A stretch of DNA of 61,569 bases from Candidatus Omnitrophota bacterium (GCA_003528115.1 DOGZ01000022.1:24397-85965); one strand, 5' to 3'. Positions 23,472-46,529 are shown, counted from the stretch's first letter. Notes: generated from the sequence alone by a model not told the origin. A program made the numbers and translations.

Positions 23472-23662
23472 GATTTCCTCTTCTATTTTTTAAAAAAATA
23501 ATCGTCAGCAAAAATTAACCATAGCAGTATTAGAAAATATGGATATAATGAGGCCATCCCAAGAATTTTTAGTCATGAAATCAAGATCTGTTTTCCTTCC
23601 CTTACGTCCGCCGAGAGGGGAGGACTTAGCAAGAAAGAGAAAATAGAACAATTTTATTCAGG

Positions 23663-24742
23663 GTGGCATGTGCGATGAGATTTCTTGTGAAAAACATTCT
23701 TTCTAGTTTTGCTATGGCGGGCGTGAGCTTCTCCCTCTTGTTGGGTGGGGGCGCGATTTCCAGCTATGCCGGGTTAAGCCCCGAGGAGCAAACAACGATT
23801 GAGACGTTTGAGCGTGTTTCTCCTTCCGTGGTTTTTATTAAGAACGCCTCCGTGCAATGGGATTGGTTCTCGACAGATCTTTATGAAATTCCCCAGGGGG
23901 CCGGTTCCGGGTTTGTATGGGACAAGGAAGGACACATTGTTACGAATTTTCACGTGATTTATCAAGCGGATAAGATTGAGGTGGTTCTTTCCGATCATAA
24001 TTCGTATCCGGCCCGGGTGGCGGGTATTTCCCCCGACGATGATCTTGCCGTCTTAAAGATTGAGGCGCCCGCGGCAATCCTCAGTCCGATTTCCGTCGGG
24101 AGTTCGAAAGATTTGAAAGTGGGCCAAAGGACGTTATCGATTGGAAATCCGTTTGGGCTGGATTACTCATTAACCACCGGTGTAGTCAGCGCGTTGGGCC
24201 GATCCATGCGTTCGGTCAGCGGAAGAAAAATTCATGATGTTATTCAGACAGACGCGGCGATCAATCCGGGCAATTCCGGTGGACCGCTCTTGGATTCGTC
24301 GGGGAATCTTATTGGTATGGCCACCGCCATTTATAGCCCTTCCGGGGCTTACGCGGGCGTGGGATTCGCTATTCCCGTGGATATCGTCAAGAGGGTGGTC
24401 CCTCAACTGATCCGGCATGGACGGATCAAGAAGGTGGGGTTAGGCGTGGTGCTTGTCCCGGACAATATCCGGGAACGCATGGGTATGGACGGGGCCATGA
24501 TTTTGAATGTCTTGAAAAACAGTTCCGCGAGTCAGGCGGGCCTTCAGCCGACGCGGAAGAATTATTTTGGACAGATTATTCACGGGGATGTGATTATTTC
24601 TATAAACGGCCAGCCGATAACCGGCAATGAGGATCTGACTGCTTTTTTTGAAAAGGATAAAAAAGAGGGTGAGCAGGTTAATATCAAGTTTTTACGTAAT
24701 GGAAAAGAATATGGAACAACAGCGATTTTGAAGGAATTATAA
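23663..24742 (+). CDS. HtrA/DegP-family periplasmic serine protease with one PDZ domain
   Basis: Catalytic triad contexts TNFHV, DLAVLKI, GNSGGPLL. Signal peptide present. The start may be ATG 23675 instead of GTG 23663. Confidence 0.9.
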   Translation: MACAMRFLVKNILSSFAMAGVSFSLLLGGGAISSYAGLSPEEQTTIETFERVSPSVVFIKNASVQWDWFSTDLYEIPQGAGSGFVWDKEGHIVTNFHVIYQADKIEVVLSDHNSYPARVAGISPDDDLAVLKIEAPAAILSPISVGSSKDLKVGQRTLSIGNPFGLDYSLTTGVVSALGRSMRSVSGRKIHDVIQTDAAINPGNSGGPLLDSSGNLIGMATAIYSPSGAYAGVGFAIPVDIVKRVVPQLIRHGRIKKVGLGVVLVPDNIRERMGMDGAMILNVLKNSSASQAGLQPTRKNYFGQIIHGDVIISINGQPITGNEDLTAFFEKDKKEGEQVNIKFLRNGKEYGTTAILKEL

Positions 24743-24823
24743 AGGGGTTACATTTTAGAGAAAGGAGAGACGGGGGATTTTAATACAATAATGAATTAGC
24801 CAAAATCCAAAAAAGGGGGGGGT

Positions 24824-25069
24824 ATGGTTAGAGGCAAAGTGAAATGGTTTGATCAAAAAATGGGCTATGGCTATCTGGTTAATGCTAAAGGGGAAGAAGT
24901 ATTGGCCTATGCCGGTAATATTGAAAGTCAGGACCTGAGCATTCCGCAAACGGAGTTTTTAAATCAGGGACAGGACGTTGAGTTTGATACGGTGAGCGAC
25001 CAAGGGGAGATGATCGCGGTTAATATCATCACGAGTGGACATCAGAATTTTGCCGATATTAGTCAATAA
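24824..25069 (+). CDS. divergent cold-shock-domain (CSD) protein
   Basis: GKVKWFDQKMGYGYL resembles the CspA RNP1 context GTVKWFN..KGFGFI. 81 aa, with a GGGGGG Shine-Dalgarno upstream. Confidence 0.65.
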   Translation: MVRGKVKWFDQKMGYGYLVNAKGEEVLAYAGNIESQDLSIPQTEFLNQGQDVEFDTVSDQGEMIAVNIITSGHQNFADISQ

Positions 25070-25197
25070 GAACACTGGGTGAAAGAAATAATCAATCAGG
25101 ATCAAAGTGTTTGAAATCCATGAGGGCGGGGGGCGAATCGAATGAAAAGAATCGCCCCTTCCCCATTATTCTGGAAATTATTCAGGAGGAAATAAAG

Positions 25198-26166
25198 ATG
25201 TGGGCTTTTCAAATGAGAATGTGGCTTTTGTTAGGGGCACTTTTCGCCATCATCTACGCGATGATTGTGATGATCGGGACAGCGATGGGCCTGGGGAGTT
25301 TCTATTCCTATTTGGTTATTTCTTTCGTGATGATGTTTATTCAATTCATGATCGGCCCCAAAATCGTCGAATGGACCATGCGTGTCCGATACATTAAGCG
25401 TGACGAGGATCCGGCGTTATTCGGGATGATTGAAGATCAAGCCCGAAGGGCCGACATGCCTATGCCCCGCGTTTGTGTCGCTCAGATCGGGATTCCCAAC
25501 GCCTTTGCCTTTGGGCGCGGCATCCGTGATGGGCGCGTTTGCGTGACCGAAGGCATCCGGCGGCTTTTGAGTCAGGATGAGTTAAAGGCGGTCATCGGGC
25601 ATGAGATCACCCATTTAAAGAACCGCGATGTTATTACCATCACGCTTCTATCGGTGATTCCGATGATTATGTACCGCGTGGCCTGGCATTTTCTTTTTTA
25701 CGGTGGGGGGAGGCGCAGAGAACACAGTGGCGGGAATACGGCTTTTATCGGCCTAGCGGCATTCCTTTTTTATTTTGTCACCAACCTTTTAGTCCTTTAC
25801 GCCTCACGGATCCGGGAGTATTTCGCGGACGAGGGGTCAGTGCGATTGGGCAATCGGCCCGAGGCCTTGGCCACAGCCCTGTATAAACTCGTTTACGGCG
25901 CGGCCCGCATGGATAAGGCTTCCTTGAAGGAGACCGAAGGCATCAAGGCGTTTTTTATTAATGATCCGTCTAAAGCTTTGAGTGAAATCCGCGAGTTAAG
26001 CCAGCTTGATATGGATCGCAGCGGCACGATTGATCCGGAGGAACTGGCCCGGTTGCGTAGTAAGCAAGTTCGTTTGGAATTTGGAGATAAACTTTTGGAA
26101 TTTTTAAGCACGCATCCGAATATGCTGAAACGCATCCAACACCTTTCCGGGTTGCAAATCCATTGA
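25198..26166 (+). CDS. htpX: HtpX-family M48 membrane zinc protease with an embedded EF-hand-like loop
   Basis: HEITHLKNRD (HExxH). TM segments flank the catalytic domain. Start at ATG 25198, behind AGGAGG. Confidence 0.85.
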   Translation: MWAFQMRMWLLLGALFAIIYAMIVMIGTAMGLGSFYSYLVISFVMMFIQFMIGPKIVEWTMRVRYIKRDEDPALFGMIEDQARRADMPMPRVCVAQIGIPNAFAFGRGIRDGRVCVTEGIRRLLSQDELKAVIGHEITHLKNRDVITITLLSVIPMIMYRVAWHFLFYGGGRRREHSGGNTAFIGLAAFLFYFVTNLLVLYASRIREYFADEGSVRLGNRPEALATALYKLVYGAARMDKASLKETEGIKAFFINDPSKALSEIRELSQLDMDRSGTIDPEELARLRSKQVRLEFGDKLLEFLSTHPNMLKRIQHLSGLQIH

Positions 26167-26998: not shown

Positions 26999-28393
26999 AT
27001 GAACTTCCTCAGACGTTTTCAAATCAAGGTGCCTTTGGTGATGATTTTCGCCATGTGCCTTGTTTTGCTTTTGAGTTTTTTATTGGTTTATAAATTCACC
27101 CTGGATTCTCAGTTGGACAACATCAGAAAAAGATTGATGGTACTGGCTCAGACGGCCGTGCTGACGATTGACCCCGAACTCCTCCAGAATGTTCCTCTTC
27201 ATAGACAAGGCGTTGAATCCGCGCCTTATCAGGTTATTAAAGAAAAACTGGAAAAGATAAAAAAGATAAGTCCGCAGATCAAGTATATTTATACAATGAC
27301 GAAGACGGAAACGGAGGGGGTTTGGCAGTTCATCGTTGATCCGGATCCCGTGGGTAGAGACAAGAAAGGGAAAGTGTTGACTTCTTTTCCGGGAGACCGG
27401 TATGACGTCTTTCGGTTCCCCGAGATGCTTCGGGCCTTTGAAGGGCCGTCGGCGGATCAAAGGCTTCATCGTGATGAGTGGGGGGTGACTTTGTCCGGGT
27501 ATGCCCCTGTCCTCGACAAAGAAGGCAAGGCTGTGGCCATGTTGGGGGTGGATATCCTGGCGGAGGATGTGTACGCCATCCAGCGGGAGGCCGAAAGGCG
27601 CGTTATCTTTGTGTTCGCTTTTGGAGTGATCCTTGCTTTGATTGTCGGGGGGATCATCTCAAGGACCATCACGCGCCCCGTCAGCAGACTTGTGGAAGGG
27701 ACAAGCCGCATCGCGCAAGGGAATCTCCAGTACAGAGTCCATATCGACGGGGATGATGAAATAAGCGATTTAGCCAGGTCATTTAATCAAATGGCCAGAA
27801 GTCTTTATAAATCCAAGAGAAGGATTTTCAGTTATTTTCATTATGTCGTCAAAACTTTGATCCGGGTGCTGGAAGCGAAGGATCATTACACCAAGGGACA
27901 TTCCCAGATGGTCGCTGAATATGCCGGAAAGATTGCTCTGAGAATGGGGGTCCCCCGGGAGGACATCAAAATCTTCAAAAAGATAACCCTTTTGCATGAT
28001 ATCGGCAAGGTGGGGATCGAAGATGGTATTTTAAACAAACCCGGCAAGCTCACCGATGAGGAAAGGAAAAGAATCAATGAACACCCCCTCATCGGCGAAG
28101 AGATTTTAAGGCCCATTATCGGTAATGAAAAAATGCTGGCCGTTGTCCGGGGACATCATGAACGTTACGACGGCCAAGGGTATCCGGACAGGCTCGGTAA
28201 AGATGAAATTAATATTTTCGCGGCCATCGTGGCCGTGGCGGACACCTATGACGCCATGACCTCGGACCGGGCCTACAGAAAGGCCTTGGGTCATCACGCG
28301 GCCGTCGAAGAACTCAAAAAAAACCGCGGCACCCAATTCCATCCTAAGATTGTCGATGTTTTTCTGCAGGTCCTGGAAGAAGAAAAGTTTTGA
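26999..28393 (+). CDS. membrane sensor with periplasmic domain, HAMP and HD-GYP phosphodiesterase domain
   Basis: Two TM segments, a HAMP-like RPVSRLVEGTSRIAQGNL, and HD-GYP motifs LLHDIGK and HHERYDGQGYP. Confidence 0.85.
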   Translation: MNFLRRFQIKVPLVMIFAMCLVLLLSFLLVYKFTLDSQLDNIRKRLMVLAQTAVLTIDPELLQNVPLHRQGVESAPYQVIKEKLEKIKKISPQIKYIYTMTKTETEGVWQFIVDPDPVGRDKKGKVLTSFPGDRYDVFRFPEMLRAFEGPSADQRLHRDEWGVTLSGYAPVLDKEGKAVAMLGVDILAEDVYAIQREAERRVIFVFAFGVILALIVGGIISRTITRPVSRLVEGTSRIAQGNLQYRVHIDGDDEISDLARSFNQMARSLYKSKRRIFSYFHYVVKTLIRVLEAKDHYTKGHSQMVAEYAGKIALRMGVPREDIKIFKKITLLHDIGKVGIEDGILNKPGKLTDEERKRINEHPLIGEEILRPIIGNEKMLAVVRGHHERYDGQGYPDRLGKDEINIFAAIVAVADTYDAMTSDRAYRKALGHHAAVEELKKNRGTQFHPKIVDVFLQVLEEEKF

Positions 28394-28452: not shown

Positions 28453-29895
28453 ATGATGTCGAAAACACACGCGGAACCGTCCTATTCGAATTATCGATTA
28501 ACCGTGCGGCTTGAGCTGGAAAATCAGCCCGGGATTTTCGCCTCGGTAGTCAATTTGCTGGCGAAAGAGCGGGCGAATTTAGGAGCGGTGGATATCGTCC
28601 AGGTAACAAAGGATCACATGGTGCGGGACATTACTTTTGATGTGGATAATGAGGCCCATGGTCAACGGATTCTTGACGAATTTCGCAGTTTAAATAAAGT
28701 AAAAGTGATTTCCTTCTCCGATCCGATTTTTCTTATCCATCTGGGAGGAAAAATACGCGTTGAGAATAAAATCCCCATTCTTACCAGAAATCAACTTTCC
28801 ATGGCCTATACGCCCGGGGTTGCCAAAGTCTCCAAGGCCATAGCGGAAGATGTATCGAAAGTTTATACGTTGACTATCAAAGGGAATAGCGTCGCGGTCA
28901 TTAGTGATGGTTCCGCCATTCTGGGGCTCGGGAATTTGGGGCCGGAAGCCGCTTTGCCGGTCATGGAAGGTAAGGCGATGATTTTTAAGGAATTTGCCGG
29001 CATTGACGCGTGGCCTATTTGTTTGGCGACGCAGGAAACGGAAGACATTATCAAGACGGTTCAGCACATCGCCCCTGTTTTTGGCGGGATCAATTTGGAA
29101 GATATCAGCGCCCCGCGTTGTTTTGAAATTGAAGAGCGGCTTAAATCCATCCTCGACATACCGGTGATGCATGATGATCAGCATGGGACCGCCGTTGTGA
29201 TCTTGGCCGCGCTAAGAAATGCCTTAAAATTGGTCGGGAAAGATATTAAGGAAATTAAAGTTGTGGTGAGCGGACTGGGCGCCGCGGGCATTGCGTGTTG
29301 TAAGATCCTGTTAAACGCGGGGGTCGAGCATCTTTATGGCGCGAAGCGAAAAGGGGTCGTCTTGATCTGTAATGAAAAAAATATTCACGCCGCGCGAAAG
29401 GACATATTTTCTTGTATTAAACCGGAGGAGCCTTTTTTAACCTTACGTGAGGCCCTCATCGAGGCGGATGTGTTTATCGGCGTGTCTGCGGGAAACATCT
29501 TAACAGCGAAAGATGTTAAGCGCATGAATAAAGATAATATTGTTTTTGCCGTAGCCAATCCGGATCCGGAAATAGATCCTAAAGAGGCTATTAAAGTTTG
29601 CCGTATTTTTGCGACGGGCCGCTCGGATTTTCCTAACCAGATTAATAATGCCTTGGCATTTCCTGGGATTTTCCGAGGAGCCCTTAATGTCAGAGCTCGA
29701 CAAATCAACGAAGACATGAAGCTCGCGGCCGCGGCGGCCATCGCGGGTCTTATTCATGAGGACCAATTAAATGATGAGTATATTATTCCGAGTATTTTTG
29801 ATCAGCGTGTCGTTAAAGCGGTGTCTTCCGCTGTTGAGCTTGCCGCGCATAAGACCGGAGTTTCACGCAAGAAAATGAGAACGGAGAATTACTGA
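28453..29895 (+). CDS. NAD(P)-dependent malic enzyme with an N-terminal ACT domain
   Basis: LSMAYTPGVA, VISDGSAILGLGNLG, GINLEDI, Rossmann VVSGLGAAGIA. A ~75-aa ACT-like N-terminus. Confidence 0.9.
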   Translation: MMSKTHAEPSYSNYRLTVRLELENQPGIFASVVNLLAKERANLGAVDIVQVTKDHMVRDITFDVDNEAHGQRILDEFRSLNKVKVISFSDPIFLIHLGGKIRVENKIPILTRNQLSMAYTPGVAKVSKAIAEDVSKVYTLTIKGNSVAVISDGSAILGLGNLGPEAALPVMEGKAMIFKEFAGIDAWPICLATQETEDIIKTVQHIAPVFGGINLEDISAPRCFEIEERLKSILDIPVMHDDQHGTAVVILAALRNALKLVGKDIKEIKVVVSGLGAAGIACCKILLNAGVEHLYGAKRKGVVLICNEKNIHAARKDIFSCIKPEEPFLTLREALIEADVFIGVSAGNILTAKDVKRMNKDNIVFAVANPDPEIDPKEAIKVCRIFATGRSDFPNQINNALAFPGIFRGALNVRARQINEDMKLAAAAAIAGLIHEDQLNDEYIIPSIFDQRVVKAVSSAVELAAHKTGVSRKKMRTENY

Positions 29896-30000
29896 TTTTC
29901 CCCAAAGTAATGGACCATTATGGTGGTCAGTAGGTTTTAAATATTCCATCCTTTCTATGTCTATTAAATAATTTTCCAGAAAATTGAGGGGAGTTTCTAA

Positions 30001-31686
30001 ATGGGGCGCCATAAACTTAAACCGAAATTGATAACAGTATTAAAAGAAGGATATTCGCTAAAAAAATTTGTTCCTGATTTAATTGCAGGAATTATTGTAG
30101 GGATTGTCGCGTTACCGTTAGCCATCGCTTTTGCCATTGCTTCCGGCGTTAAACCCGAACAGGGATTATATACGGCAGTTGTGGCAGGGTTTATTGTTTC
30201 TTGTTTAAGCGGCAGCCGTGTTCAAATCGGCGGGCCGACGGGCGCATTTATTGTCATCGTTTACGGTATCGTTTCAAAATATGGGTATGACGGTTTGGCG
30301 ACAGCAACTTTAATGGCTGGATTCTTGCTTATTTTGATGGGGATTGCGCGGTTCGGTGATATCATTAAATATATCCCTTATCCCGTGACAGTCGGGTTTA
30401 CCGGGGGAATAGCATTAATTATTTTGGCAGCGCAGATTCGGGATTTTCTAGGATTGACCGGAGGGGCTGTCCCAGCGGAATTTATTGAAAAGATCAAGTA
30501 TTATGCCGAACATATTAATACTTATAATTTTTACGCCGTCGGTATAGGTATTTTAACGCTGTTGATTATCGTTTATTGGCCCAAGGTCACGCGAAAAATT
30601 CCGGGGTCTTTTATTGCAATTATTTTTACGACGCTGCTCGTTAAAATATTTCATCTGCCGATTGAAACGATCGGCAGCCGTTTTGGAGGGGTCCCCAATA
30701 CGTTACCGATGCCGCATGTACCTAATATCAGCATAGATATTATAAAAAAATTAAGTTCACCGGCTCTAACGATTGCCATGTTGGCGGGTATCGAATCATT
30801 GCTTTCCGCTGTTGTTGCCGATGGCATGACAGGCAACCGCCATCGTTCCAACATGGAATTAATCGCCCAAGGAGTGGCCAATATTGCTTCCCCCGTTATG
30901 GGTGGAATCCCAGCGACTGGCGCAATTGCCAGAACAGCCACCAATGTTAAAAATGGCGGGCGAACACCGTTTGCGGGCATTATTCATGCGGTCACACTTT
31001 TACTTATTTTAATTTTTTTCGGACCATGGGCAGCTTTGATTCCGATGGCGGCTCTGGCCGGCATACTCATCAGTGTTGCTTATAATATGAGCGAATGGCA
31101 TTTATTTGTTAAAATATTTAGAAGTCCAATGAGTGATGTCATCGTTCTATTGACGACGTTTTTGTTGACAGTATTCGTTGATCTGACTGTCGCCATCAAA
31201 TTCGGTGTTGTGCTGGCGGCTTTTTTATTTATGAAAAGGATGTCCGAGGCAACGGAAGTCGGATACATCACAGATTCTTTAGTTGATCAAGAGATCGATG
31301 AAGAAGATATGGTTGATCAAAATCGAATATCACAAAAAGATATTCCCGATGAAGTTGAAGTATTTGAAATAGATGGGCCGTTTTTCTTTGGAGCAGCCGA
31401 TAAATTTAAAGATACGATTCGCAGTCTTGAGAAGAAGCCTAAAATTCTTATTCTTCGCATGCGGCATGTTCCAACGATTGATGCGACTGGAATAAGCGCT
31501 CTGGAAAATGTATTGAGTCTTTCCAAGCAAGATGGCACTCGAATTATTTTGTCGGGATTACAGGCAAGACCTTTAGAGAAAATGAAACGGGCCGGTTTAT
31601 TAAAGTATATCGAAGATGAAAATATTCAGTCGACCATTGATCAAACGTTCGATCGTGCACGACAGATACTTAAGGAGAACAAGTAA
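30001..31686 (+). CDS. SulP-family anion transporter with a C-terminal STAS domain
   Basis: Sulfate_transp-type TM core (GLYTAVVAGF, QIGGPTGAF, ATNVKNGGRTP) and STAS (ILILRMRHVPTIDATGISALE). Confidence 0.9.
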   Translation: MGRHKLKPKLITVLKEGYSLKKFVPDLIAGIIVGIVALPLAIAFAIASGVKPEQGLYTAVVAGFIVSCLSGSRVQIGGPTGAFIVIVYGIVSKYGYDGLATATLMAGFLLILMGIARFGDIIKYIPYPVTVGFTGGIALIILAAQIRDFLGLTGGAVPAEFIEKIKYYAEHINTYNFYAVGIGILTLLIIVYWPKVTRKIPGSFIAIIFTTLLVKIFHLPIETIGSRFGGVPNTLPMPHVPNISIDIIKKLSSPALTIAMLAGIESLLSAVVADGMTGNRHRSNMELIAQGVANIASPVMGGIPATGAIARTATNVKNGGRTPFAGIIHAVTLLLILIFFGPWAALIPMAALAGILISVAYNMSEWHLFVKIFRSPMSDVIVLLTTFLLTVFVDLTVAIKFGVVLAAFLFMKRMSEATEVGYITDSLVDQEIDEEDMVDQNRISQKDIPDEVEVFEIDGPFFFGAADKFKDTIRSLEKKPKILILRMRHVPTIDATGISALENVLSLSKQDGTRIILSGLQARPLEKMKRAGLLKYIEDENIQSTIDQTFDRARQILKENK

Positions 31687-31688
31687 CG

Positions 31689-32399
31689 ATGGAACTGACG
31701 ATTAACGATATCGTTAAGATTTTTGCGGTTCCGGAGGATACGGTTAACAATTGGATTGAAAAAAAAGATATGCCTTGTATCAAGGCGAATGAACAATATC
31801 GTTTTAATTATATTGAATTGCTTGATTGGGCTCTTCAGAAGAAAATCCAACTGACTCCCGAAGTATTGAGTTTGGGAGACCGCGAGAATTATGAGGTTAG
31901 TGTTTTATACCAAGCGATTAAAAACGGTCGTATTCATTATGATGTTCCCGGGGATAATCGGGAAGAAGTTTTGAAATCTATTGTTGATATATTGCCTCTT
32001 CCGTCTAAGTTAAATAGGAAATCTCTTTGGCAGATGTTGATTGCCCGAGAAAAAATGATGGCAACGGCTCTTGGCAATGGCATCGCTATTCCCCATGTAC
32101 GTAATCCAGTTGTTTTGAATATAGAGCAGCCTTCCATCTCTTTGTGTTTCTTGAAAAAAACCGTCGATTTTAAAGCAATTGACGGCAAACCGGTTTTTAT
32201 CCTCTTTATTCTCTTAAGCCCCTCCGTTAAAAGCCATTTAACTCTTCTAAGCCGGTTAGCTTATTGTTTGCAGAGTACAAAGCTCCAGGGATATTTGCAG
32301 GCAAAAGCGACACAAGAAGAAATTTTAGCTGAAATTAGGATTCTTGAATCAAAATTATCCTCCGTTCCTGATGAGAATGGGAAGAAAGGGGATCGATGA
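31689..32399 (+). CDS. HTH (excisionase/MerR-like) fused to a PTS EIIA type-2 (PtsN-like) domain
   Basis: N-terminal LTINDIVKIFAVPEDTVNNWIEKKDMP. EIIA motif ALGNGIAIPHVRNP with the phospho-His. Confidence 0.8.
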   Translation: MELTINDIVKIFAVPEDTVNNWIEKKDMPCIKANEQYRFNYIELLDWALQKKIQLTPEVLSLGDRENYEVSVLYQAIKNGRIHYDVPGDNREEVLKSIVDILPLPSKLNRKSLWQMLIAREKMMATALGNGIAIPHVRNPVVLNIEQPSISLCFLKKTVDFKAIDGKPVFILFILLSPSVKSHLTLLSRLAYCLQSTKLQGYLQAKATQEEILAEIRILESKLSSVPDENGKKGDR

Positions 32400-34375
32400 T
32401 GGACTTTTTTTTATACAGTCTGACTATTTTGTCTGTCTCCGGGGTTTTAATAATACTGACCACGCGATTTAGAAAAATGAGCGAAAGTATTTTCCTGATC
32501 TCGTTGATATTAGGATGCGGCTTGGGGTTCATTTCTGCCGTAACTATCCTTGCTAGTCGGACACCAATAGATTATCGGTTGAATTTTCGAATGCCTATCG
32601 GAGAGTTCTATATAGGTGTCGACCCCTTAAGTGCATTCTTTTTATTAGTGATTACCATTTTATTTTTTTTGGCTGGTTTATATGGGTACAGTTATTTGAA
32701 AGATCATGGGAAAAAGAATTTAAGTGTTCATTATGCTCTCTATCATTTGGCGTTAATTTCTTTGATGCTTGTGGTCACCGCCCAAAATGCTGTTTTATTT
32801 CTGATGGCTTGGGAGATGGTAACAGTCACGTCGTATTTTCTTATTGTATTTTATGACGAGAGGGAAGTTACGAGAAAAGCCGGATATCTTTTTTTGATAG
32901 CCGCGCATACTGGAACATTTTGTTTATGGGTGATGTTTCTTCTAATGGCGCGTCACACAGGGGCGATGAATTTTGATCAAATGATGTTAACACCATTTCC
33001 TTTACCACTTGCGGGCTTGCTTTTTGTTTTAGGAGTTATAGGTTTTGGTGTTAAAACGGGCTTTATTCCTCTTCATATATGGCTGCCCCACGCTCATCCG
33101 GCAGCTCCGAGTCATGTATCAGCAGTTTTGTCCGCCGTTATGATCAAGATGGGTGTTTATGGATTAATGAGAATCATTTTTATTATTAAAGATTTTCCGG
33201 AATGGTGTGCGGTTACGTTGCTTTTGATTGGAATGATCTCAGGAGTGGGGGGTGTTTTGTATGCGTTAGGTCAGCATGAAATCAAAAAATTACTCGCTTA
33301 TCACAGTATTGAAAATATCGGGATTATAACACTAGGTTTAGGAACGGGATTGTGGGGGCAGATTTATCATAATGAGTCTGTGATTCTTGTTGGTTATGCC
33401 GGCGCGCTTTTGCATGTTTTTAATCATGCCGTTTTTAAAGGGCTTTTATTTTTAAGCGCAGGATCAGTGATCCGATCGACGCATACGGGAGAGATTGACC
33501 ATCTAGGGGGACTTTTGAAACACCTTCCTTGGACAGGATGTTTATTTTTAATTGGTTCTTTATCGATCTGCGGGTTACCGCTCTTTAATGGTTTTGTCAG
33601 TGAGTGGCTTGTTTTCCGTGGATTGTTTGAAGGGATGTTTCAGTTTAAAATGAACGCGCTTATTTTTAACAGTTTGGGTATTATTTCATTGGCCTTGATC
33701 GGTGGTTTGGCCGCGGCGTGTTTTGCGAAAGCTTTTGGCGCGATATTTCTAGGGAATAGTCGATCGGTTGATTTTACTCATGTAAAAGAAAATTCTCCCA
33801 TCATGTGTGTTTCAATGTTTGTACTAGGAGGGATTTGCTTGTGGATTGGATTTTTTCCAACGCAAATGGTGTCTTTTGCCTTGGGGGCCGCTTCAACTAT
33901 TTCCAGCGCTCAGATTTCAACCACAATTGAGGAGGCAATTATTTTTCCTCTTTTAAAAGTAGTGTTAGTTCTGATTATTTTGATGACGATTGCCGTTGTC
34001 CTGATTTTATTTAAAAGGATCGCGATGAAATTTCTACCCATTGAAAATGCGCCGACATGGGGGTGCGGGTATTCTCTCCCAACGCGTCGCATGCAGTACA
34101 CGGCTTCATCATTTGCAGAACCGATTTTACGGATTTTTCGAAATGTCCTTGGGTTTAATGTTGAAGGGAATAAACCGAAAGGATATTTCCCTGATGAAGC
34201 GAAGATTTCTTCGCATGTCCTCGAAGCTTCCGAGGATATTTTGTTTCGTCCGATTTTTAAATTTATCGAGTTTTTATCGGTGAAATTTAAAATTATCCAA
34301 TATGGGTATACCCAGTTGTACTTGCTTTACATTTTTATTTTTCTTTTAGTTTTATTGGTTTGGAAAATGATTTAG
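32396..34375 (+). CDS. HyfB/HycC/NuoL-like antiporter-type membrane subunit
   Basis: Proton_antipo_M core GFGVKTGFIPLHIWLPHAHPAAPSHVSAVLSAVMIKMGVYG. 659 aa. ATGA overlap with the EIIA gene. Confidence 0.85.
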   Translation: MMDFFLYSLTILSVSGVLIILTTRFRKMSESIFLISLILGCGLGFISAVTILASRTPIDYRLNFRMPIGEFYIGVDPLSAFFLLVITILFFLAGLYGYSYLKDHGKKNLSVHYALYHLALISLMLVVTAQNAVLFLMAWEMVTVTSYFLIVFYDEREVTRKAGYLFLIAAHTGTFCLWVMFLLMARHTGAMNFDQMMLTPFPLPLAGLLFVLGVIGFGVKTGFIPLHIWLPHAHPAAPSHVSAVLSAVMIKMGVYGLMRIIFIIKDFPEWCAVTLLLIGMISGVGGVLYALGQHEIKKLLAYHSIENIGIITLGLGTGLWGQIYHNESVILVGYAGALLHVFNHAVFKGLLFLSAGSVIRSTHTGEIDHLGGLLKHLPWTGCLFLIGSLSICGLPLFNGFVSEWLVFRGLFEGMFQFKMNALIFNSLGIISLALIGGLAAACFAKAFGAIFLGNSRSVDFTHVKENSPIMCVSMFVLGGICLWIGFFPTQMVSFALGAASTISSAQISTTIEEAIIFPLLKVVLVLIILMTIAVVLILFKRIAMKFLPIENAPTWGCGYSLPTRRMQYTASSFAEPILRIFRNVLGFNVEGNKPKGYFPDEAKISSHVLEASEDILFRPIFKFIEFLSVKFKIIQYGYTQLYLLYIFIFLLVLLVWKMI

Positions 34376-34388
34376 AGAAATAAACGAT

Positions 34389-35306
34389 ATGGGATTCCAA
34401 ATTTTATTGCACATAGGTATTGTGATTATTTTGTCCCCGTTGCTTTTGGGAATTATCGGAAAAACAAAAGCCTTTTTTGCTGGACGCTGGGGGGCGCCGT
34501 TGTTACAGCCCTATTACGATATCGGGAAATTATTAAGAAAGGGAAATGTTTATAGCACGACAACAACGTGGATTTTTCAGGCGGCACCCATTGTTTCTTT
34601 GGCCGCTGTTCTTGTTTCATCAATTTTGATACCGATGGGCGGCTTAAAAGCTCCGTTTTCATTTTGGGGAGATATTATTCTTTTCGCGGGGCTTTACGCT
34701 TTAGCTAGATTCTTTATTATTATCGCAGCCCTTGATACAGGATCAAGTTTCGAAGGAATGGGCGCGAGCCGAGAAGCAGCCTTTTCATGTTTAGCGGAAA
34801 TCGTATTATTCTTAGATTTTATTATCCTCGCATTGTTGTCTAAAAAACTTATCTTATCAGAAATGATTATGCGAAATATTTTATCTTGGGAGTTATTCGG
34901 GCCGGTGCTTCTTTTGGTCGTGGCGAGTTATTTCTTGGTTTTATTGACGGAGAATGCGCGCATTCCCATTGATGACCCGGCCACACACTTAGAACTAACG
35001 ATGATCCATGAGGTGATGGTGTTGGATCATAGCGGATGGGACTTGGCTTATATTTTATACGGGGCTGCGATTAAGTTGTTTGTTTTAGGAGCGCTACTTG
35101 TCAATATTTTAATTCCGTTTCATGGTTTGCCTGCCATTGTGCAGTTTATGGTTTTCTGGGGGGGCATGATTATATTGGCGATTGGCCTTGGAATTGTAGA
35201 ATCTTGTATGGCAAGATTACGGTTAAATCGTGTTCCGCAATTGCTCACAGGTGCTTTTGTTTTAGCTTTGGTCGGACTGTTGATTATTTTAGTCAAAGGG
35301 GTATGA
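34389..35306 (+). CDS. HyfC/HycD/NuoH-like membrane subunit
   Basis: GKTKAFFAGRWGAPLLQPYYDIGKLLRK matches the HycD/NuoH N-terminal signature. 305 aa, about 8 TM. Confidence 0.85.
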   Translation: MGFQILLHIGIVIILSPLLLGIIGKTKAFFAGRWGAPLLQPYYDIGKLLRKGNVYSTTTTWIFQAAPIVSLAAVLVSSILIPMGGLKAPFSFWGDIILFAGLYALARFFIIIAALDTGSSFEGMGASREAAFSCLAEIVLFLDFIILALLSKKLILSEMIMRNILSWELFGPVLLLVVASYFLVLLTENARIPIDDPATHLELTMIHEVMVLDHSGWDLAYILYGAAIKLFVLGALLVNILIPFHGLPAIVQFMVFWGGMIILAIGLGIVESCMARLRLNRVPQLLTGAFVLALVGLLIILVKGV

Positions 35307-35941
35307 CGCCAATGTGGTTGGAATCGGCATTAATTTTAATTATTCTTTTTGGGATCATTATTTTAGGGAATAATCGTCTTTCGACTATGATCCAGCTTCT
35401 TGCGCTGCAATCTCTGGTGTTGAGCATAACACCTTTGTTGATCCATCCAAGTATTCATGCGTTTACCATGACAATCGTAACAATTGTTCTAAAAGTTATC
35501 GTGATGCCGAGTTTGCTTTTTTGGGCGATCCGGCATGTTTCTATTCGACGTGAAGTCCAGCCTCTCATTGGTTACGGGAAGACTTTATTATTAGGCGGTT
35601 TTCTTATGGGAGTGGCATTTTTGATATCTTCAAAATTAGACTTGCCTGATAAAGGAATGTCGAATTTATTGGTTCCCACGGCTTTTTCTCTTGTGATGAT
35701 CGGATTTTTACTTTTAGTCACCCGGTTTAAAGCGATCACTCAGGTTATTGGTTATCTGGTCATGGAAAACGGCATTTTTCTATTTGCCCTTTTATTATTG
35801 GAAAAAACACCTCTCTTAGTCGAGATGGGAATATTTTTGGATATTTTTGTCGGTGTTCTGGTCATGGGGATTATTATTAATCACATCAACCAGGAATTTG
35901 GTAGCGCGAGTACGGTTAATTTAACCAATTTGAGAGACTAG
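35303..35941 (+). CDS. HyfE-like small membrane subunit
   Basis: 212 aa if started at ATG 35303 (ATGA overlap with the upstream stop), about 7 TM, the size of E. coli HyfE. The track ORF from 35204 overlaps the previous gene. Confidence 0.7.
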   Translation: MTPMWLESALILIILFGIIILGNNRLSTMIQLLALQSLVLSITPLLIHPSIHAFTMTIVTIVLKVIVMPSLLFWAIRHVSIRREVQPLIGYGKTLLLGGFLMGVAFLISSKLDLPDKGMSNLLVPTAFSLVMIGFLLLVTRFKAITQVIGYLVMENGIFLFALLLLEKTPLLVEMGIFLDIFVGVLVMGIIINHINQEFGSASTVNLTNLRD

Positions 35942-35946
35942 ATTTT

Positions 35947-37371
35947 ATGGAGTTATTCTTATTATTAGAGCTGCCGTTGTTAATGGCCATGGTTGTTTTT
36001 CTTCCACAGAAAAATAGTTTAAGGAAAATTATTCTTCTGTTAACCAGTTCTATCCATGTGTTTGCAACGATCAGTCTTTGGCAGTATCCGCGGGCTGTTC
36101 GATTTAATTCTTTTTTAGGATTCGATGCCGTAAGCCAATTAGTTCTCAATTGTATCAGTCTCTTATTTTTTGTCGTTTCGATTTATCTGATAGGTTATCT
36201 TGATGAAAAGAAGCGTCGATCCAACAGGATTCTCATTAGCTGTCTGTTGGGGCTTCTGGCGAGCATGACGCTGGTTATGATGAGCCGGCATATGGGGCTT
36301 TTATGGATAGCCATTGCTTCGTCGACGTTATTAAGCGTCCCGTTAGTAAATTATTATCGTACCCCCAAAAGTATCGAGGCTACTTGGAAATATTTATTGA
36401 TTTCTTCGGTGGGCATTGCCTTAGGTTTACTCGGGACGCTTTTTTTGGCGATATCAGCGACGTCTATTAATACGATTTTCTTAGACGATATTTTAAATAA
36501 TGCGGCGTATCTTTCACCGTCGTGGTTAAAATTGAGCGTGATTTTTCTTTTGGTCGGGTATGGGACAAAAATGGGATTAGCCCCGATGCACACCTGGAAA
36601 CCCGACACGTACGGTGAAGCGCCATCACCCATCGGGGCGCTCATGTCCGGGGCCGTGACAGGGTGCGCTTTTCTGGCTGTCTTAAGAGTTTTTCAAATTT
36701 GTTTTTATGCGCATTTGAAGGAATTTGTTTCTCCAATATTGATTCTCTTGGGAATTTTATCTTTGGGGATAGCGGCGGTCTTTATCCTGGGACAGAAAGA
36801 TTTTAAACGGATGTTAGGCTATTCCAGTGTGGAGCATATGGGAATGTTGGTTTTGGCTCTGGGTTTAGGGGGAGGGGCGATTTGGGCCAGCTTATTTCAT
36901 ATGGTTAATAATACCTTTGCAAAAGGATTAATTTTTTTGGTATCAGGCAATCTGAACCAGATTTTCCGGAGCAGAAAAATTGAAAATATCCAAGGGGTCA
37001 TTCATCGGTTTCCCATCACTGGTGTCTGCTTGATTGTGGGATTGCTTGTGATCACCGGTTTCCCCCCCTTTGGGATTTTTTATAGCGAACTCTTAATTCT
37101 TAAAGAGGCGTTGATAACTCATCAGTACATGGTTGGGTTGTTTTATTTGCTATTTTTATCAGTGATTTTTTTTGGTTACGCAAGAATTATTTTAAGTATG
37201 GCTTTGGGCCAGCCAACAGAAGGCCATCATCAAAGGGTGAAGAAGGAAAATTTCTTTATGGTTGTGCCGTTAATTATTTTATTATTCATTTTATTTTTTG
37301 TCGGAATTTTGGTGCCCGATGCTTTTTATAATTTAATTAATGAAGCGATCGCGCTTTTAGGGGGAAAGTAA
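35947..37371 (+). CDS. HyfF/NuoN/NuoM-like antiporter-type membrane subunit
   Basis: GYGTKMGLAPMHTWKPDTYGEAPSPIGALMSG and MLGYSSVEHMG motifs. Confidence 0.85.
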   Translation: MELFLLLELPLLMAMVVFLPQKNSLRKIILLLTSSIHVFATISLWQYPRAVRFNSFLGFDAVSQLVLNCISLLFFVVSIYLIGYLDEKKRRSNRILISCLLGLLASMTLVMMSRHMGLLWIAIASSTLLSVPLVNYYRTPKSIEATWKYLLISSVGIALGLLGTLFLAISATSINTIFLDDILNNAAYLSPSWLKLSVIFLLVGYGTKMGLAPMHTWKPDTYGEAPSPIGALMSGAVTGCAFLAVLRVFQICFYAHLKEFVSPILILLGILSLGIAAVFILGQKDFKRMLGYSSVEHMGMLVLALGLGGGAIWASLFHMVNNTFAKGLIFLVSGNLNQIFRSRKIENIQGVIHRFPITGVCLIVGLLVITGFPPFGIFYSELLILKEALITHQYMVGLFYLLFLSVIFFGYARIILSMALGQPTEGHHQRVKKENFFMVVPLIILLFILFFVGILVPDAFYNLINEAIALLGGK

Positions 37372-37372
37372 A

Positions 37373-38899
37373 GTGGAACAAAAAGAGTTTCATGCGCGCA
37401 ATGGACAGAGTTGGGAGTTAAATCAAATTCCTATTCTAGAAGAAAGTTCGTTCCGGCAGAAAATTTTGGAGGGATGTCATCACAATTTAAGACTTGTTAA
37501 TCTATATGCCCAACAGGATGAGAATAGGAATATCAAAGTTTTTGCGATACTCGGGAATGATCAAGAAGGAAGATTGACGGTTTTTGCCATGCAGATACCG
37601 CACGATCAAGCGTTGTTCCAATCATTGACATCTGAACTTCCCCAAGCCCATATGTTTGAAAGGGAAATGGCCGAGCAGTTTGCGATTGCACCCATAGGAC
37701 ATCCTTGGCTTAAGCCGGTGCGTTATCATCAGAATTATCGCAATGTCTCTGATCTGTGGCCGGAGGTTTCTTCAAAGTCTATCCCGGGAGTTTATCCTTT
37801 TTATCGTGTAAATGGTGAAGAAGTGCATGAAGTAGCTGTTGGACCTGTTCATGCGGGTATTATTGAACCCGGACATTTTCGTTTTCAATGTCATGGCGAA
37901 GAAATCTTAAATTTAGAAATTCAGTTGGGTTATCAGCATCGTGGTATCGAGAAAGTGATGGAAAATGTTTCAGTAGAAAGAGCTGTGCTTTTGGCTGAAT
38001 CAATTGCCGGAGACTCTGTCATCGGGCATGCGACGGCCTATTGCAATATTATTGAATCGTTAAGCGACTGTGAAATATCTCCTCGGGCGGAAGCGATTCG
38101 ATCAATCGCTCTTGAATTGGAACGGCTTTCCAATCATATCGGGGATTTAGGCGCTTTAAGCACAGATATAGGCTTTTTACCGCCGTCGGCATATTTCGGC
38201 CGGCTCCGGGGAGAATTTTTAAATTTATTGATGGAGTTAAGCGGCAACCGTTACGGACGAAGTTTGTGTCGTCCCGGCGGAGTTTTATTTGATTTGGATG
38301 AAGGAATGATTAAAAATTTTCGAGAACGGCTTTTGATCGCCCAAAGAGATTTAAAAGAAATATCGGATCTGTTTTTTTCAAAATCATCGGTTCTTTCACG
38401 TCTTGAAGGAACAGGAATAGTTTCAAAGAAGACGGCTAAAGAGCTAGGACTTGTCGGTCCGGTGGCCCGTGCTTCGGGGCTCGGCCTTGATGTCCGTAGC
38501 GATTATGCCTTTGGGATGTATCGTTTTAATTATATTCCTGTTTCCACAGTTCATTCGGGAGATGTGTACGCCCGGGCACTCATCCGCTGGCTCGAGTCTC
38601 AGCGGTCGATTGAATTTCTTTTAGATGTATTGAATCAGATTCCCGAGGGAGATTTACAAACAAAGGTTTCCGTATTGAAACCAAATCATATGGCTTTATC
38701 TATGATCGAAGGGTGGCGGGGAGAAATTGTCCACGTGGCGATGACGGATTCCAATTCCCGCGTTGTGCGTTATAAAATAAAAGATCCTTCTTTTAGTAAT
38801 TGGATGGGTCTTTCTATGGCGGTGCGTGGCGTGCAGATTTCCGATTTTCCGCTTTGCAATAAAAGTTTTAATTTGTCTTACGCTGGGCACGATCTTTAA
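37373..38899 (+). CDS. NuoC-NuoD / HycE-like 'large subunit' lacking all four [NiFe] cysteine ligands (Ehr-type)
   Basis: GPVHAGIIEPGHFRF, LEIQLGYQHRGIEK. The L1 site reads AGDSVIGH (38006-38029) and the L2 site NLSYAGHDL (38870-38896), in place of CGxCxxxH and DPCxxCxxR. Confidence 0.85.
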   Translation: MEQKEFHARNGQSWELNQIPILEESSFRQKILEGCHHNLRLVNLYAQQDENRNIKVFAILGNDQEGRLTVFAMQIPHDQALFQSLTSELPQAHMFEREMAEQFAIAPIGHPWLKPVRYHQNYRNVSDLWPEVSSKSIPGVYPFYRVNGEEVHEVAVGPVHAGIIEPGHFRFQCHGEEILNLEIQLGYQHRGIEKVMENVSVERAVLLAESIAGDSVIGHATAYCNIIESLSDCEISPRAEAIRSIALELERLSNHIGDLGALSTDIGFLPPSAYFGRLRGEFLNLLMELSGNRYGRSLCRPGGVLFDLDEGMIKNFRERLLIAQRDLKEISDLFFSKSSVLSRLEGTGIVSKKTAKELGLVGPVARASGLGLDVRSDYAFGMYRFNYIPVSTVHSGDVYARALIRWLESQRSIEFLLDVLNQIPEGDLQTKVSVLKPNHMALSMIEGWRGEIVHVAMTDSNSRVVRYKIKDPSFSNWMGLSMAVRGVQISDFPLCNKSFNLSYAGHDL

Positions 38900-38938
38900 T
38901 GGTTTGACTTCGCTCACCACAAGGGAGGTATTTGAGTT

Positions 38939-39700
38939 ATGTGGGGTGTAATCGTCAATCGATTTAAACAGGGATTTAGGACATTGTCCTATCCTAAAGA
39001 AATCCCTTCTTTCCCGAAACGTTTTCGTGGCAGACCAATTATTCCAACCACAGAAACCCAATTTTTAATCGACAAAGAGAAAGACCCTTTAGGTGCGGTT
39101 GTGCTCGAAAAGAAACCTGCGATTGATATGGGGAAATGTTTGTTCAATGAAGATATGAAAACTGTTTGTTCAAAAGGGACTTTGATTTATTCTCAAGATC
39201 ATCGTATGGCTGTTTCAAAAAGGGAGGATTTGATTATTCAAGATGAGGTCAGGCTGGCCACCGCACTCAATGAAAAGACAAGAAGGATTTTCGGAAGATC
39301 ACTTAAATTGCGAGAGGTCTGTGCGGGGAGTTGTGGCGGTTGCGATGCCGAAATTCAGGCGATGGGGAATGTGGTTTTTGACTTATCGCGCTTTGGAATT
39401 CAATTTGTCGCTTCTCCTCGACATGCGGACGGCTTGATGATCACGGGTCCGGTCACAAAAAATATGGAATTGGCTTTAAGGAAAACTTATGAGGCTGTTC
39501 CCCAGTCTAAAATTGTCATTGCCGTTGGGGCCTGTGCCATCAGTGGGGGCCCGTTTCAAGGAGGGAAAGAGGTTCATAACGGCGTTGAGGAATTGATCCC
39601 AGTGGACTTGTATATTCCCGGATGCCCTCCGCATCCGTTGACCATTCTTGATGGGTTACTTCGTTTGCTTGGGAGATTGCAAAATGAAAAAAGAATATAA
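38939..39700 (+). CDS. NuoB/HycG-like small subunit retaining the [4Fe-4S] Cys ligands, with a ~115-aa N-terminal extension
   Basis: GSCGGCDAEI, GACAISGGPF and IPGCPPHP motifs. The N-terminal region (IDMGKCLFNEDMKTVCSKG) looks like a cysteine-depleted ferredoxin motif. Confidence 0.8.
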   Translation: MWGVIVNRFKQGFRTLSYPKEIPSFPKRFRGRPIIPTTETQFLIDKEKDPLGAVVLEKKPAIDMGKCLFNEDMKTVCSKGTLIYSQDHRMAVSKREDLIIQDEVRLATALNEKTRRIFGRSLKLREVCAGSCGGCDAEIQAMGNVVFDLSRFGIQFVASPRHADGLMITGPVTKNMELALRKTYEAVPQSKIVIAVGACAISGGPFQGGKEVHNGVEELIPVDLYIPGCPPHPLTILDGLLRLLGRLQNEKRI

Positions 39701-45093: not shown

Positions 45094-45155
45094 ATTATGA
45101 AGATGATGCTCCCGGTGCAATCCAACACGCTTAAGTCCGAGGGATGTTTTAAAAG

Positions 45156-45413
45156 ATGGATCAACGAGATCATAAAAAACAGAGGGTTGAAATGAACAGA
45201 TATTTTGATGGGGAATCGCTGGTTGTTATGGCAATCACTTTAGGGCTTTTTGTCACAGCCCTTTTTGTCAAGGGATTCACGCACGACCTCCTGCTGGAGG
45301 CCGGTATTTTTCTTATCTCGGTCAAGATCATTATGGCGGGATATAGAAATCATAGGGACATGAGTGAGATCAAAGCCAGGCTGGATGAGTTGAAGAAAAT
45401 GATGGAACGTTAA
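45156..45413 (+). CDS. small membrane protein, hypothetical
   Basis: 85-aa ORF with two hydrophobic segments. It still has the higher-GC composition of the flanking cluster. Confidence 0.45.
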   Translation: MDQRDHKKQRVEMNRYFDGESLVVMAITLGLFVTALFVKGFTHDLLLEAGIFLISVKIIMAGYRNHRDMSEIKARLDELKKMMER

Positions 45414-45523
45414 CGTATAGGTATTTAGATAAACCGATAGAATAATAGAGTTTATTTTTGCAGCTTCGGATGTCCGATGGGTACACTATCTACTGACTTT
45501 GATGGCATTCGTAGAAAAAATAT

Positions 45524-45691
45524 ATGAGTAAAAATAATCCAAATGTTTATATTATTGCAGGCCCGAATGTGGCAGGTAAGACGACATTTGCTAGGCAGTT
45601 CTTACCTTTAATAGCTAGAGGAATAGGGGATAAGGTAGAGATTATTGACCATGATTTATACGAATCCATTTTAAAGAGAAAGGGTTCTTAA
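45524..45691 (+). pseudogene. internally deleted zeta-toxin/AAA-like P-loop gene remnant
   Basis: MSKNNPNVYIIAGPNVAGKTTFARQFLP (Walker A) runs after ~30 aa directly into a C-terminal-like tail. 55 codons, whereas I expect ~190-aa relatives. Confidence 0.45.
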
Positions 45692-46021
45692 ACGACAAAG
45701 ACCCAACAGATCAAATTACATAAAAGCGCTCAGAAAGCTATGCGTGAAGCAGTTAAAGGTGTGGTTTTAGAACACAAAAGAATTGATTTACCATTGGCTG
45801 TTTGGAAAAATGGAAAGGTAGTTAATATTTCGGCTAAGAAATTAAAATAATTTAGACAGGCCGTTGCCTGCACCACCAAAGGCGAGAGGTGAAGTATTGT
45901 ACGACTTTGGCCGGATTTTTAGAAAAGTGTATCTTTCAAGGCCAGGCCATGATCGTGACAAGGTATCTTTTTAAATAAACAAGTCACAACTAAATTAAAA
46001 ATATTACAAAATACCGTACAA

Positions 46022-46526: not shown

Positions 46527-46529
46527 TCA

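Follow-up and report, generated by a model that had tools for sequence, protein, structure and literature searches.

Eight packed genes for a SulP transporter, an EIIA protein and an Ehr complex

We analysed a 61.6-kb stretch of DNA from Candidatus Omnitrophota (hereafter, the window), in which positions 30001–39700 hold eight co-directional and nearly gapless open reading frames (ORFs). They encode a SulP anion transporter, a protein with a helix-turn-helix (HTH) region and an EIIA domain of the phosphotransferase system (PTS), and the six subunits of an energy-converting hydrogenase-related (Ehr) complex. The assignment of the window to Candidatus Omnitrophota follows from the source names of the nearest homologues. 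The eight genes are:

30001–31686, + strand: SulP/SLC26 anion transporter with a C-terminal STAS domain (Pfam, NCBIfam)
31689–32399, + strand: HTH_17 plus PTS EIIA-2 protein, PtsN-like, with the phospho-His136 in GNGIAIPHV (Pfam, NCBIfam, PDB match)
32396–34375, + strand: EhrA, HyfB/NuoL-like antiporter-type subunit (Proton_antipo_M; top NCBIfam match hydrogenase-4 subunit B)
34389–35306, + strand: EhrB, HyfC/NuoH-like subunit (NADHdh, 9e-31)
35303–35941, + strand, true start at 35303: EhrC, HyfE-like (NuoK-related) subunit (NCBIfam hydrogenase-4 membrane subunit, 3e-24; Oxidored_q2 weak)
35947–37371, + strand: EhrD, HyfF/NuoN-like antiporter-type subunit with a modified channel (Proton_antipo_M)
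37373–38899, + strand, GTG start: EhrL, fused NuoC/NuoD (HycE-like) large subunit with no NiFe site (Complex1_30kDa and 49kDa)
38939–39700, + strand: EhrS, NuoB/HycG-like small subunit with a vestigial NuoI/HycF-like N-terminus (Oxidored_q6 at residues 132–242)

These product assignments had been made in an earlier sequence-only reading of the same DNA, and Pfam and NCBIfam profile searches bore out each domain in all eight of them. The junctions were also exactly as that reading had claimed. The SulP and EIIA genes are separated by 2 nt (TAA-CG-ATG), ATGA overlaps join EIIA to EhrA (32396–32399) and EhrB to EhrC (35303–35306), and the remaining gaps are 13 nt (EhrA/EhrB), 5 nt (EhrC/EhrD), 1 nt (EhrD/EhrL) and 39 nt (EhrL/EhrS), the last of which contains a GGGAGG ribosome-binding site ahead of EhrS. 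This arrangement suggests that all eight are translationally coupled as a single unit. Purifying selection was strong on every one of them, with ratios of nonsynonymous to synonymous substitution rates (dN/dS) of 0.04–0.18 against the related locus L081 and of 0.04–0.05 for SulP, and the proportion of nonsynonymous differences (pN) of the operon genes was far below that of synonymous ones (pS) in comparisons with L083 and L001. The dN/dS values for EhrB and EhrD of locus L097 were artefacts of paralogous high-scoring segment pairs and were left out.

The Ehr core has lost the NiFe and quinone ligands and has an apparently intact ion path

All six subunit types (HyfB/NuoL, HyfC/NuoH, HyfE, HyfF/NuoN, HycE/NuoCD and HycG/NuoB) are found in one cluster, and we regard the identity of this six-subunit module, as a member of the described Ehr family, as nearly certain. 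The family is large, with at least 8000 EhrL homologues (E ≤ 1e-10, at 90% clustering), and Ehr is found in many bacterial phyla.

When EhrL was aligned with Escherichia coli HycE (7z0s_E), the L1 motif CGIC was replaced by AGDS and the L2 motif DPCYSC by NLSYAG, so that all four NiFe cysteines are gone, and the same loss was seen in the 12 homologues aligned. The proposal that the locus encodes a cysteine-less hydrogenase relative of the Ehr type was thus upheld. Because EhrL has no NiFe ligands, Ehr cannot be a hydrogenase and there can be no H2 turnover at a NiFe site. Neither is it complex I, because the two quinone ligands of Thermus thermophilus Nqo4 (2fug_4), His38 and Tyr87, correspond to Ile164 and Gly213 in EhrL. 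The C-terminus of EhrL, ISDFPLCNKSFNLSYxGHDL, is family-specific and invariant. Two invariant cysteines, Cys224 and Cys495, were considered as a possible new site in place of the former NiFe centre, a candidate that we rejected because Cys224 is some 12 residues away from L1 along the helix.

In the small subunit EhrS, all four cysteine ligands of the proximal [4Fe-4S] cluster (N2-type, as in NuoB) are still present, in the motifs CAGSCGGC, GACA and GCPP. EhrS also has an N-terminal extension of about 120 residues, in which residues 57–108 weakly match HycF/NuoI models, suggesting that the ferredoxin-type subunit is a vestige rather than absent. One CxxCxxCxxxCP motif is kept in the extension of 64 of the 86 family members; in the window this motif is degenerate and reads CLFNEDMKTVCS. 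The sequence-only reading had stated that the window contains no HycF/NuoI subunit, formate dehydrogenase (FDH), hyp/hycI maturation genes or NuoEFG-type module. As separate genes none of these was found in the 28 window ORFs covered by the Pfam scan, a set that takes in every immediate flank (some 20 others, each 150 aa or longer and 10 kb or more away from the locus, lay outside it), but the vestige in EhrS shows that the NuoI/HycF part of the statement was too strong.

In the membrane arm, the channel residues E140, K220, K251, K348 and E403 of EhrA are invariant in 46 of 46 sequences, a full charged set which suggests that the complex has at least one intact antiporter-type ion path. EhrD keeps the Lys in transmembrane helix (TM) 7 and the Glu in TM12, and the TM8 Lys is missing family-wide. 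EhrD has its TM5 Glu in 69 of 74 sequences; Ala (residue 124) replaces it in the window, L001, L002, L083 and L084, all of which are Omnitrophota. This Glu is kept in Omnitrophota without SulP and in every other phylum, including Ignavibacteria with SulP, and the last of these confines the correlation between Glu loss and SulP to the phylum Omnitrophota.

An HTH-EIIA gene is the conserved partner of Ehr

The EIIA domain of the second gene product (PF00359, 3e-27) has PtsN as its best NCBIfam match (TIGR01419), with a score of 66.9 that is under the cut-off of 138.7. The nearest solved structures are PtsN proteins, the top PDB match being 2a0j, and all 61 Ehr-linked homologues share the phospho-His in GIAIPH, in agreement with the earlier description of the protein as PtsN-like with a GIAIPH histidine.

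To survey Ehr neighbourhoods, an EhrL alignment was searched against one genome per GTDB species, which gave 80 loci in more than 12 phyla. The eight window proteins were anchored on these loci by tblastn, as longest-ORF calling gave spurious antisense ORFs at high GC, and the EIIA search was repeated with a hidden Markov model built from members of 190–290 aa. The order EhrA, B, C, D, L, S recurs in the 80 loci, including those of Geobacter and Geomonas. In 34 of them an HTH-EIIA gene lies directly upstream of EhrA. L010 and L014 have it ahead of a second EhrA paralogue, in L069 it is one of the genes inside the operon, and in L020 and L021 it is a divergent adjacent gene, so that EIIA is found at the ehr operon in about 39 of the roughly 50 loci with enough flank to judge. 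These belong to Verrucomicrobiota, Planctomycetota, Gemmatimonadota, Geobacterales, Spirochaetota, Acidobacteriota, Hydrogenedentota, Actinomycetota and Fibrobacterota. Variants of the arrangement were seen at three places, with two tandem EIIA genes at L010:1564-3044, an EIIA-like ORF between EhrA and EhrB at L069:6257-6928, and an EIIA homologue downstream of EhrS at L009:6721-7467.

The EIIA and EhrA genes overlap or are at most 11 nt apart in Omnitrophota and in the Ignavibacteria loci L165 (5 nt) and L166 (11 nt); at the L164 junction the gene call is ambiguous. The Ignavibacteria EIIA aligns over its full length, including the N-terminal HTH-like region, in which HTH_17 was undetected by Pfam. 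In two sister Omnitrophota loci (L162 and L163) the order is ArsR-EIIA-EhrABCDLS, and SulP is missing. In both of these a second set beginning EhrA-EhrB follows right after EhrS (L162:17820-20699, L163:17837-20702), forming a tandem Ehr operon without its own EIIA. The gene ahead of EIIA there is a small ArsR-type HTH_5 gene, and a similar ArsR gene lies ahead of the malic enzyme gene in L161, another Omnitrophota locus.

Elsewhere, the genes upstream of EIIA are mutually unrelated (integrase, Na/Ca exchanger, malic enzyme, radical-SAM protein, histidine kinase, sigma-54 activator, MlaD and Mur ligase). All-against-all clustering of the flanks of about 165 loci revealed no other conserved neighbour, whether FDH, hyp, NuoEFG, ferredoxin, carbonic anhydrase or PTS carriers. 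Hence there is also no conserved conventional partner (FDH, ferredoxin subunit or hyp genes) in or just outside comparable loci; it was the presence of such a partner that, according to the sequence-only reading, would explain the module as a normal hydrogenase. EIIA and the six Ehr genes make up the conserved unit, to which some loci add a second EhrA, and the conserved partner of Ehr is EIIA, not SulP.

One SulP subfamily was recruited to Ehr repeatedly

The transporter matches Sulfate_transp (PF00916, 1e-85) and STAS (PF01740, 1e-18) and exceeds the cut-off of the sulP subfamily model TIGR00815. Its best NCBIfam equivalog is DauA, with a score of 536.5 under the cut-off of 614, and the BicA score of 287 is far under its cut-off of 880. 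Among solved structures, BicA (6ki1) and the fumarate symporter SLC26Dg (5da0) are the nearest, and both are equally close. With both scores below their cut-offs and two equally close structures, the substrate cannot be assigned.

Among the 80 loci of the survey by EhrL, SulP occurred in the window arrangement only in L002, from a second Omnitrophota lineage, and was adjacent in another orientation at two Gemmatimonadota loci, L042 and L035. The idea that SulP is part of a conserved core was therefore given up. In a reverse survey, metagenomes were scanned with the SulP protein, giving 80 loci of 56–92% identity. SulP-EIIA-Ehr was found in the same order in the window relatives L081–L085 and L097. 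Outside the metagenome set, this order is shared by L161 and by L002, where the SulP-EIIA gap is 2 nt, as it is in the window. The same order was also found in 16 distant metagenome loci, where the identity to the window proteins is 60–62% for SulP, 27–30% for EIIA and 44–46% for EhrL. By their source names these are Ignavibacteria, including Ignavibacteriales and Melioribacteraceae. Three Ignavibacteria genomes picked through EhrL and not through SulP (L164–L166) all carry SulP-EIIA-EhrABCDLS, with SulP-EIIA gaps of 3–45 nt.

In five further metagenome loci (L094, L095, L098, L105 and L111), SulP lies beside a third Ehr subtype, which has a cysteine-less large subunit, a small subunit of 169 aa without the NuoI-like extension, and no EIIA. 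This third subtype was also seen beside a canonical Ehr in a metagenome-assembled genome of Geobacteraceae (L020:10001-20530). When SulP sequences were dereplicated at 95% identity, an Ehr-type module was adjacent in 21 of 47 assessable clusters. The claimed linkage between SulP and the EIIA module is thus non-random as seen from SulP and recurs in the same order in Ignavibacteria, but it does not hold for most Ehr loci.

Neighbour-joining (NJ) analysis of the SulP subfamily recovered both the clade of the window and that of the Ignavibacteria in 100 of 100 bootstraps; in none of the 100 were these clades sister to each other or to L002. SulPs without Ehr neighbours interleave between the Ehr-linked clades. 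The window SulP is 64–67% identical to unlinked SulPs and 54% identical to the SulP of L002. For EhrL, EhrA and EIIA, the identities of the window proteins are 55, 47 and 45% to L002 and about 46, 35 and 29% to Ignavibacteria. This identity pattern and the NJ topology show that the SulP tree and the Ehr tree disagree, and because the Ehr-linked SulPs are polyphyletic, SulP was recruited repeatedly. Three Ehr subtypes have thus each acquired a transporter of one SulP subfamily independently. The simplest reading of the tree conflict would be repeated insertion of SulP immediately 5′ of EIIA. Such convergence in gene order speaks well for a functional link, but not for physical contact.

At L161 (Omnitrophota, GCA_040960315.1), the order malic enzyme-SulP-EIIA-EhrA-EhrB breaks off after EhrB (L161:13958-20711). 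The interrupting genes are a SNF2-family helicase gene, an SLFN/AlbA_2-HATPase gene and an MmeI-type methyltransferase gene. A defence island seems to have been inserted here, although a misassembly is possible.

Comparison with known systems

Ehr was first named in Geobacter sulfurreducens, has been known since 2005 and has since been recognised across many phyla. The complex of Geobacter sulfurreducens was reportedly described by Coppi in 2005 and by Marreiros et al. in 2013, with the genes GSU0739-0745 plus ehrA-2 at GSU0734. In the literature Ehr appears as the "Ech/energy-converting hydrogenase-related complex" without NiFe ligands, which is not a hydrogenase and whose role is unknown (PMC7894505, PMC13194489, PMC6349859, PMC10284858, PMC7304191, PMC3569383); its function has "never been investigated" (PMC7894505) and "remains unknown" (PMC10284858). 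The fusions of NuoC with NuoD and of NuoI with NuoB in Ehr have already been described (PMC6349859, Supplementary Note 4). The core of what the sequence-only reading had called a candidate undescribed system is accordingly a described family (PMC7894505, PMC6349859). We found no description of a linkage of EIIA or SulP to Ehr in the accessible literature, which does not cover the Marreiros 2013 survey, so that priority is not excluded. Three points look new, namely the presence of EIIA at most Ehr loci, the position of SulP upstream of EIIA-Ehr in several lineages, and the repeated recruitment of SulP.

The closest described relative is the Ehr of Geobacter, which has the same six subunits in the same order, a large subunit without NiFe ligands and a NuoI-like fusion in the small subunit. 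The Geobacter and Geomonas loci also have an HTH-EIIA gene, and their EhrL is 48–50% identical to that of the window. Unlike the Geobacter locus, the window has SulP as the first gene and has lost the NuoI-like Fe-S motif and the EhrD TM5 Glu, and it carries one EhrA where Geobacterales have two.

Formate hydrogenlyase and hydrogenase-4 of E. coli (Hyc, 7z0s; Hyf) share the membrane-arm architecture and give the best matches HyfB for EhrA, HyfE for EhrC, HyfF for EhrD and HycE for EhrL. Ehr differs from them in having no NiFe ligands and no separate HycF, FdhH, hyp, hycI, focA or hyfR genes. The marks of a group 4 [NiFe] hydrogenase are missing, both the four NiFe cysteines and, in the 28 scanned ORFs and at about 165 loci, the maturation genes and an electron-input partner. 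With complex I, photosynthetic NDH-1 and Mrp, Ehr shares homologues of NuoB, C, D, H, K-like, L and N, and the full Glu/Lys channel set of EhrA. In contrast to complex I it has no NuoEFG in the scanned ORFs, a vestigial NuoI without a complete cluster motif, and Ile and Gly in place of the quinone ligands; Mrp, for its part, lacks the hydrophilic arm with an Fe-S cluster motif that Ehr has retained.

EIIA-Ntr (PtsN) of E. coli regulates K+ transport via TrkA and KdpD. The window EIIA resembles PtsN in its EIIA-2 fold and has a conserved phospho-His motif, and regulators of the MtlR type (MtlR/LicR, PRD/EIIA-containing) likewise combine an HTH with a regulatory EIIA. It differs in being a minimal HTH_17-EIIA protein with no PRD or EIIB, whose gene lies within a complex-I-like operon and is translationally coupled to it. 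In DAB (DabAB), MpsAB and NDH-1/CupA, too, there is a genetic tie between a NuoL-type subunit and the handling of small anions, and BicA, DauA and SLC26Dg are homologous to the window SulP. The window unit differs from DAB, Mps and Cup, because it has no carbonic-anhydrase-like partner and contains a six-subunit module with an Fe-S arm, not a single NuoL-like protein.

A possible role of the SulP-EIIA-Ehr unit

The interpretation that we favour is that the locus encodes a non-hydrogenase, ion-translocating Ehr that is controlled by EIIA of the nitrogen-type PTS and functionally coupled to a DauA/BicA-like anion symporter. We consider this whole package about evenly balanced between right and wrong; the identities of its parts are nearly certain, and the coupling mechanism is its weak part. 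Ehr would be a membrane module that translocates H+ or Na+. The phosphorylation state of EIIA would gate ehr expression through the HTH domain, and possibly Ehr activity through protein contact; the precedents for such regulation are the action of PtsN on TrkA and KdpD and regulators with an HTH plus an EIIA domain, such as MtlR. Ehr would thereby be a readout of the nitrogen-type PTS, reporting carbon, nitrogen and K+ status. SulP may be an ion-coupled symporter for a small anion of the C4-dicarboxylate, bicarbonate or sulfate class. Its coupling-ion cycle would be matched to that of Ehr by co-translation, and anion uptake would in effect be energised or balanced by Ehr. The "energy-coupled anion transport" of the sequence-only reading is in this sense something that we infer.

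Several observations weigh against this interpretation. Most Ehr loci, including those of sister Omnitrophota, have no SulP, which means that Ehr works without it, and when SulP lineages are defined at 80% identity, about 3 of 21 assessable ones are Ehr-linked and 18 are unlinked. EIIA was not found within 10 kb of 11 of the roughly 50 Ehr loci (Riflebacteria, Holophagae, Myxococcota, Elusimicrobiota and a few others). No genes for the PTS phosphocarriers EI-Ntr and NPr were found in the 28 scanned window ORFs, the roughly 20 distant ORFs lying outside the scan. Consensus scans for sigma-70 promoters and terminators inside the operon gave matches within coding sequence, in a number near the shuffled expectation. 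Finally, with both the ferredoxin-type motif of EhrS and the TM5 Glu of EhrD lost, Ehr of the window clade may work differently from the family norm.

Another interpretation, by analogy with MBS/Mbx and the proposed FDH-Ehr complexes, is that Ehr is a redox-driven respiratory complex, which would take electrons from a ferredoxin- or FDH-linked donor encoded elsewhere and would reduce, or couple to, the anion imported by SulP. The retained N2-type cluster in EhrS and the ferredoxin-type motif in most family members are consistent with it, as is the occurrence of MBS (6u8y) among the nearest solved relatives of EhrD and EhrL. Moreover, Geobacter Ehr subunits are more abundant on formate (PMC7894505), and an FDH-Ehr complex has been proposed for Margulisbacteria (PMC6349859). 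However, no donor module or redox enzyme is conserved beside the roughly 165 loci, where the sole conserved partner is a PTS-type regulator; EhrL has neither NiFe nor quinone ligands, and the extra cluster motif is missing in the window clade itself. We think that this alternative is unlikely.

A further alternative concerns the two features that lie directly upstream of SulP:

28453–29895, + strand: ACT-domain malic enzyme gene, possibly associated metabolically and probably a separate transcript (Pfam malic, Malic_M and ACT_4)
29913–29928, + strand: terminator-like hairpin within the 105 nt that separate the malic enzyme gene from SulP (consensus scan alone)

SulP could belong to this malic enzyme, with malate or another C4-dicarboxylate taken up and then decarboxylated, and its placement before EIIA-Ehr would then be incidental. 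The malic enzyme gene is directly upstream of SulP in both the window and L161, DauA, the best equivalog of SulP, transports C4-dicarboxylates, and one of the nearest solved structures of SulP is a fumarate symporter, SLC26Dg. Nevertheless, the gene is absent from L081–L084, from L002 and from every locus of the tblastn set to which the Ignavibacteria metagenome loci belong, the latter having SulP-EIIA-Ehr all the same, and there is none in the Pfam gene tables of L164–L166. The 105-nt gap with its hairpin contrasts with the 2-nt gap between SulP and EIIA, and the hairpin is weak evidence that the eight-gene unit may begin at SulP. Alignment of the SulP upstream regions of six relatives gave no conserved promoter or operator. 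A malic enzyme gene adjoins the unit in three loci only, the window, L161 (L161:6365-7810) and L006 (Planctomycetaceae, L006:2355-3923, 62% identity). In L006 it is upstream of EIIA-Ehr without any SulP, which suggests that the malic enzyme, if anything, is tied to Ehr too. We therefore regard incidental placement of SulP as rather unlikely; the malic enzyme is a hint towards C4-dicarboxylate or CO2 metabolism in these three loci.

It is also conceivable that Ehr is non-redox and that its hydrophilic arm serves as a docking and transduction site for phospho-EIIA. SulP would join the supercomplex through its STAS domain, and the whole would act as a PTS-gated pump, or one energised by phosphoenolpyruvate or phosphoryl transfer, that powers anion transport. 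To our knowledge, neither a complex-I-type arm energised in this way nor an SLC26 transporter with a primary energy source has ever been described, and we see this possibility as improbable.

An inorganic-carbon system like DAB or NDH-1/Cup, in which Ehr would power either the vectorial hydration of CO2 or the accumulation of bicarbonate and a BicA-like SulP would carry the bicarbonate, appears very unlikely. NuoL-like subunits are used in this manner in DAB, Mps and Cup, BicA is the top solved-structure match of SulP, and a CO2-releasing malic enzyme lies beside the unit in the three loci above. But the BicA score of 287 is far under the cut-off of 880, and no DabA (PF10070), CupA/B or carbonic-anhydrase-like domain was found in the eight products or conserved neighbours. 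In addition, SulP is missing from most Ehr loci, and the hosts, judged by name, are mostly heterotrophic anaerobes.

The view that the cysteine-less module is a decaying, functionless relic, as was assumed for Geobacter KN400 (PMC13194489), could appeal to the lost NiFe site, ferredoxin-type motif and EhrD TM5 Glu and to the operon of L161 broken after EhrB, but it is ruled out by the strong purifying selection on every gene tested (dN/dS 0.04–0.18) and has against it also the channel residues, phospho-His and EhrL C-terminus that are invariant across phyla, and a family of at least 8000 EhrL homologues.

Other features of the window

Stress and proteostasis genes lie upstream of the operon, at 2469–4328 and 22848–26166, and encode HtpG, an Hsp20 protein, an HtrA-like protease with PDZ and an M48 peptidase; they are followed by a gene for a HAMP-HD signalling protein at 26999–28393. 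On the minus strand, 4478–6886 encodes an 802-aa protein in which NIR_SIR and NIR_SIR_ferr domains are joined to a C-terminal TusA sulfurtransferase domain. A gene for a Cys/Met pyridoxal phosphate enzyme (8097–9335) is on the same strand 1.2 kb downstream of the NIR_SIR-TusA gene, with two short unscanned ORFs between them. Three ORFs of 591, 390 and 597 aa (13513–15288, 52473–53645 and 54425–56218) gave no Pfam match at 1e-6. The region 45100–48300 has a GC content of about 0.35, compared with about 0.48 elsewhere, and contains short ORFs and a 264-aa ORF (47190–47984) without a Pfam match. In the window as a whole, no tRNA gene was detected.

Implications for the Ehr family

Ehr sits at an evolutionary junction between hydrogenases and complex I. 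The nitrogen-type PTS of E. coli controls K+ and ion homeostasis, and the presence of a PtsN-like HTH-EIIA protein with an invariant phospho-His at most Ehr loci ties Ehr to nitrogen-PTS signalling. The independent recruitment of SulP to three Ehr subtypes points to an anion-linked role. Together, the links to EIIA and SulP are the first concrete clues to the function of Ehr, and they can be tested in Geobacter sulfurreducens and in Ignavibacteria. If it is true that Ehr energises or balances an SLC26 transporter, this would be a new way to couple a complex-I-type module to solute transport.

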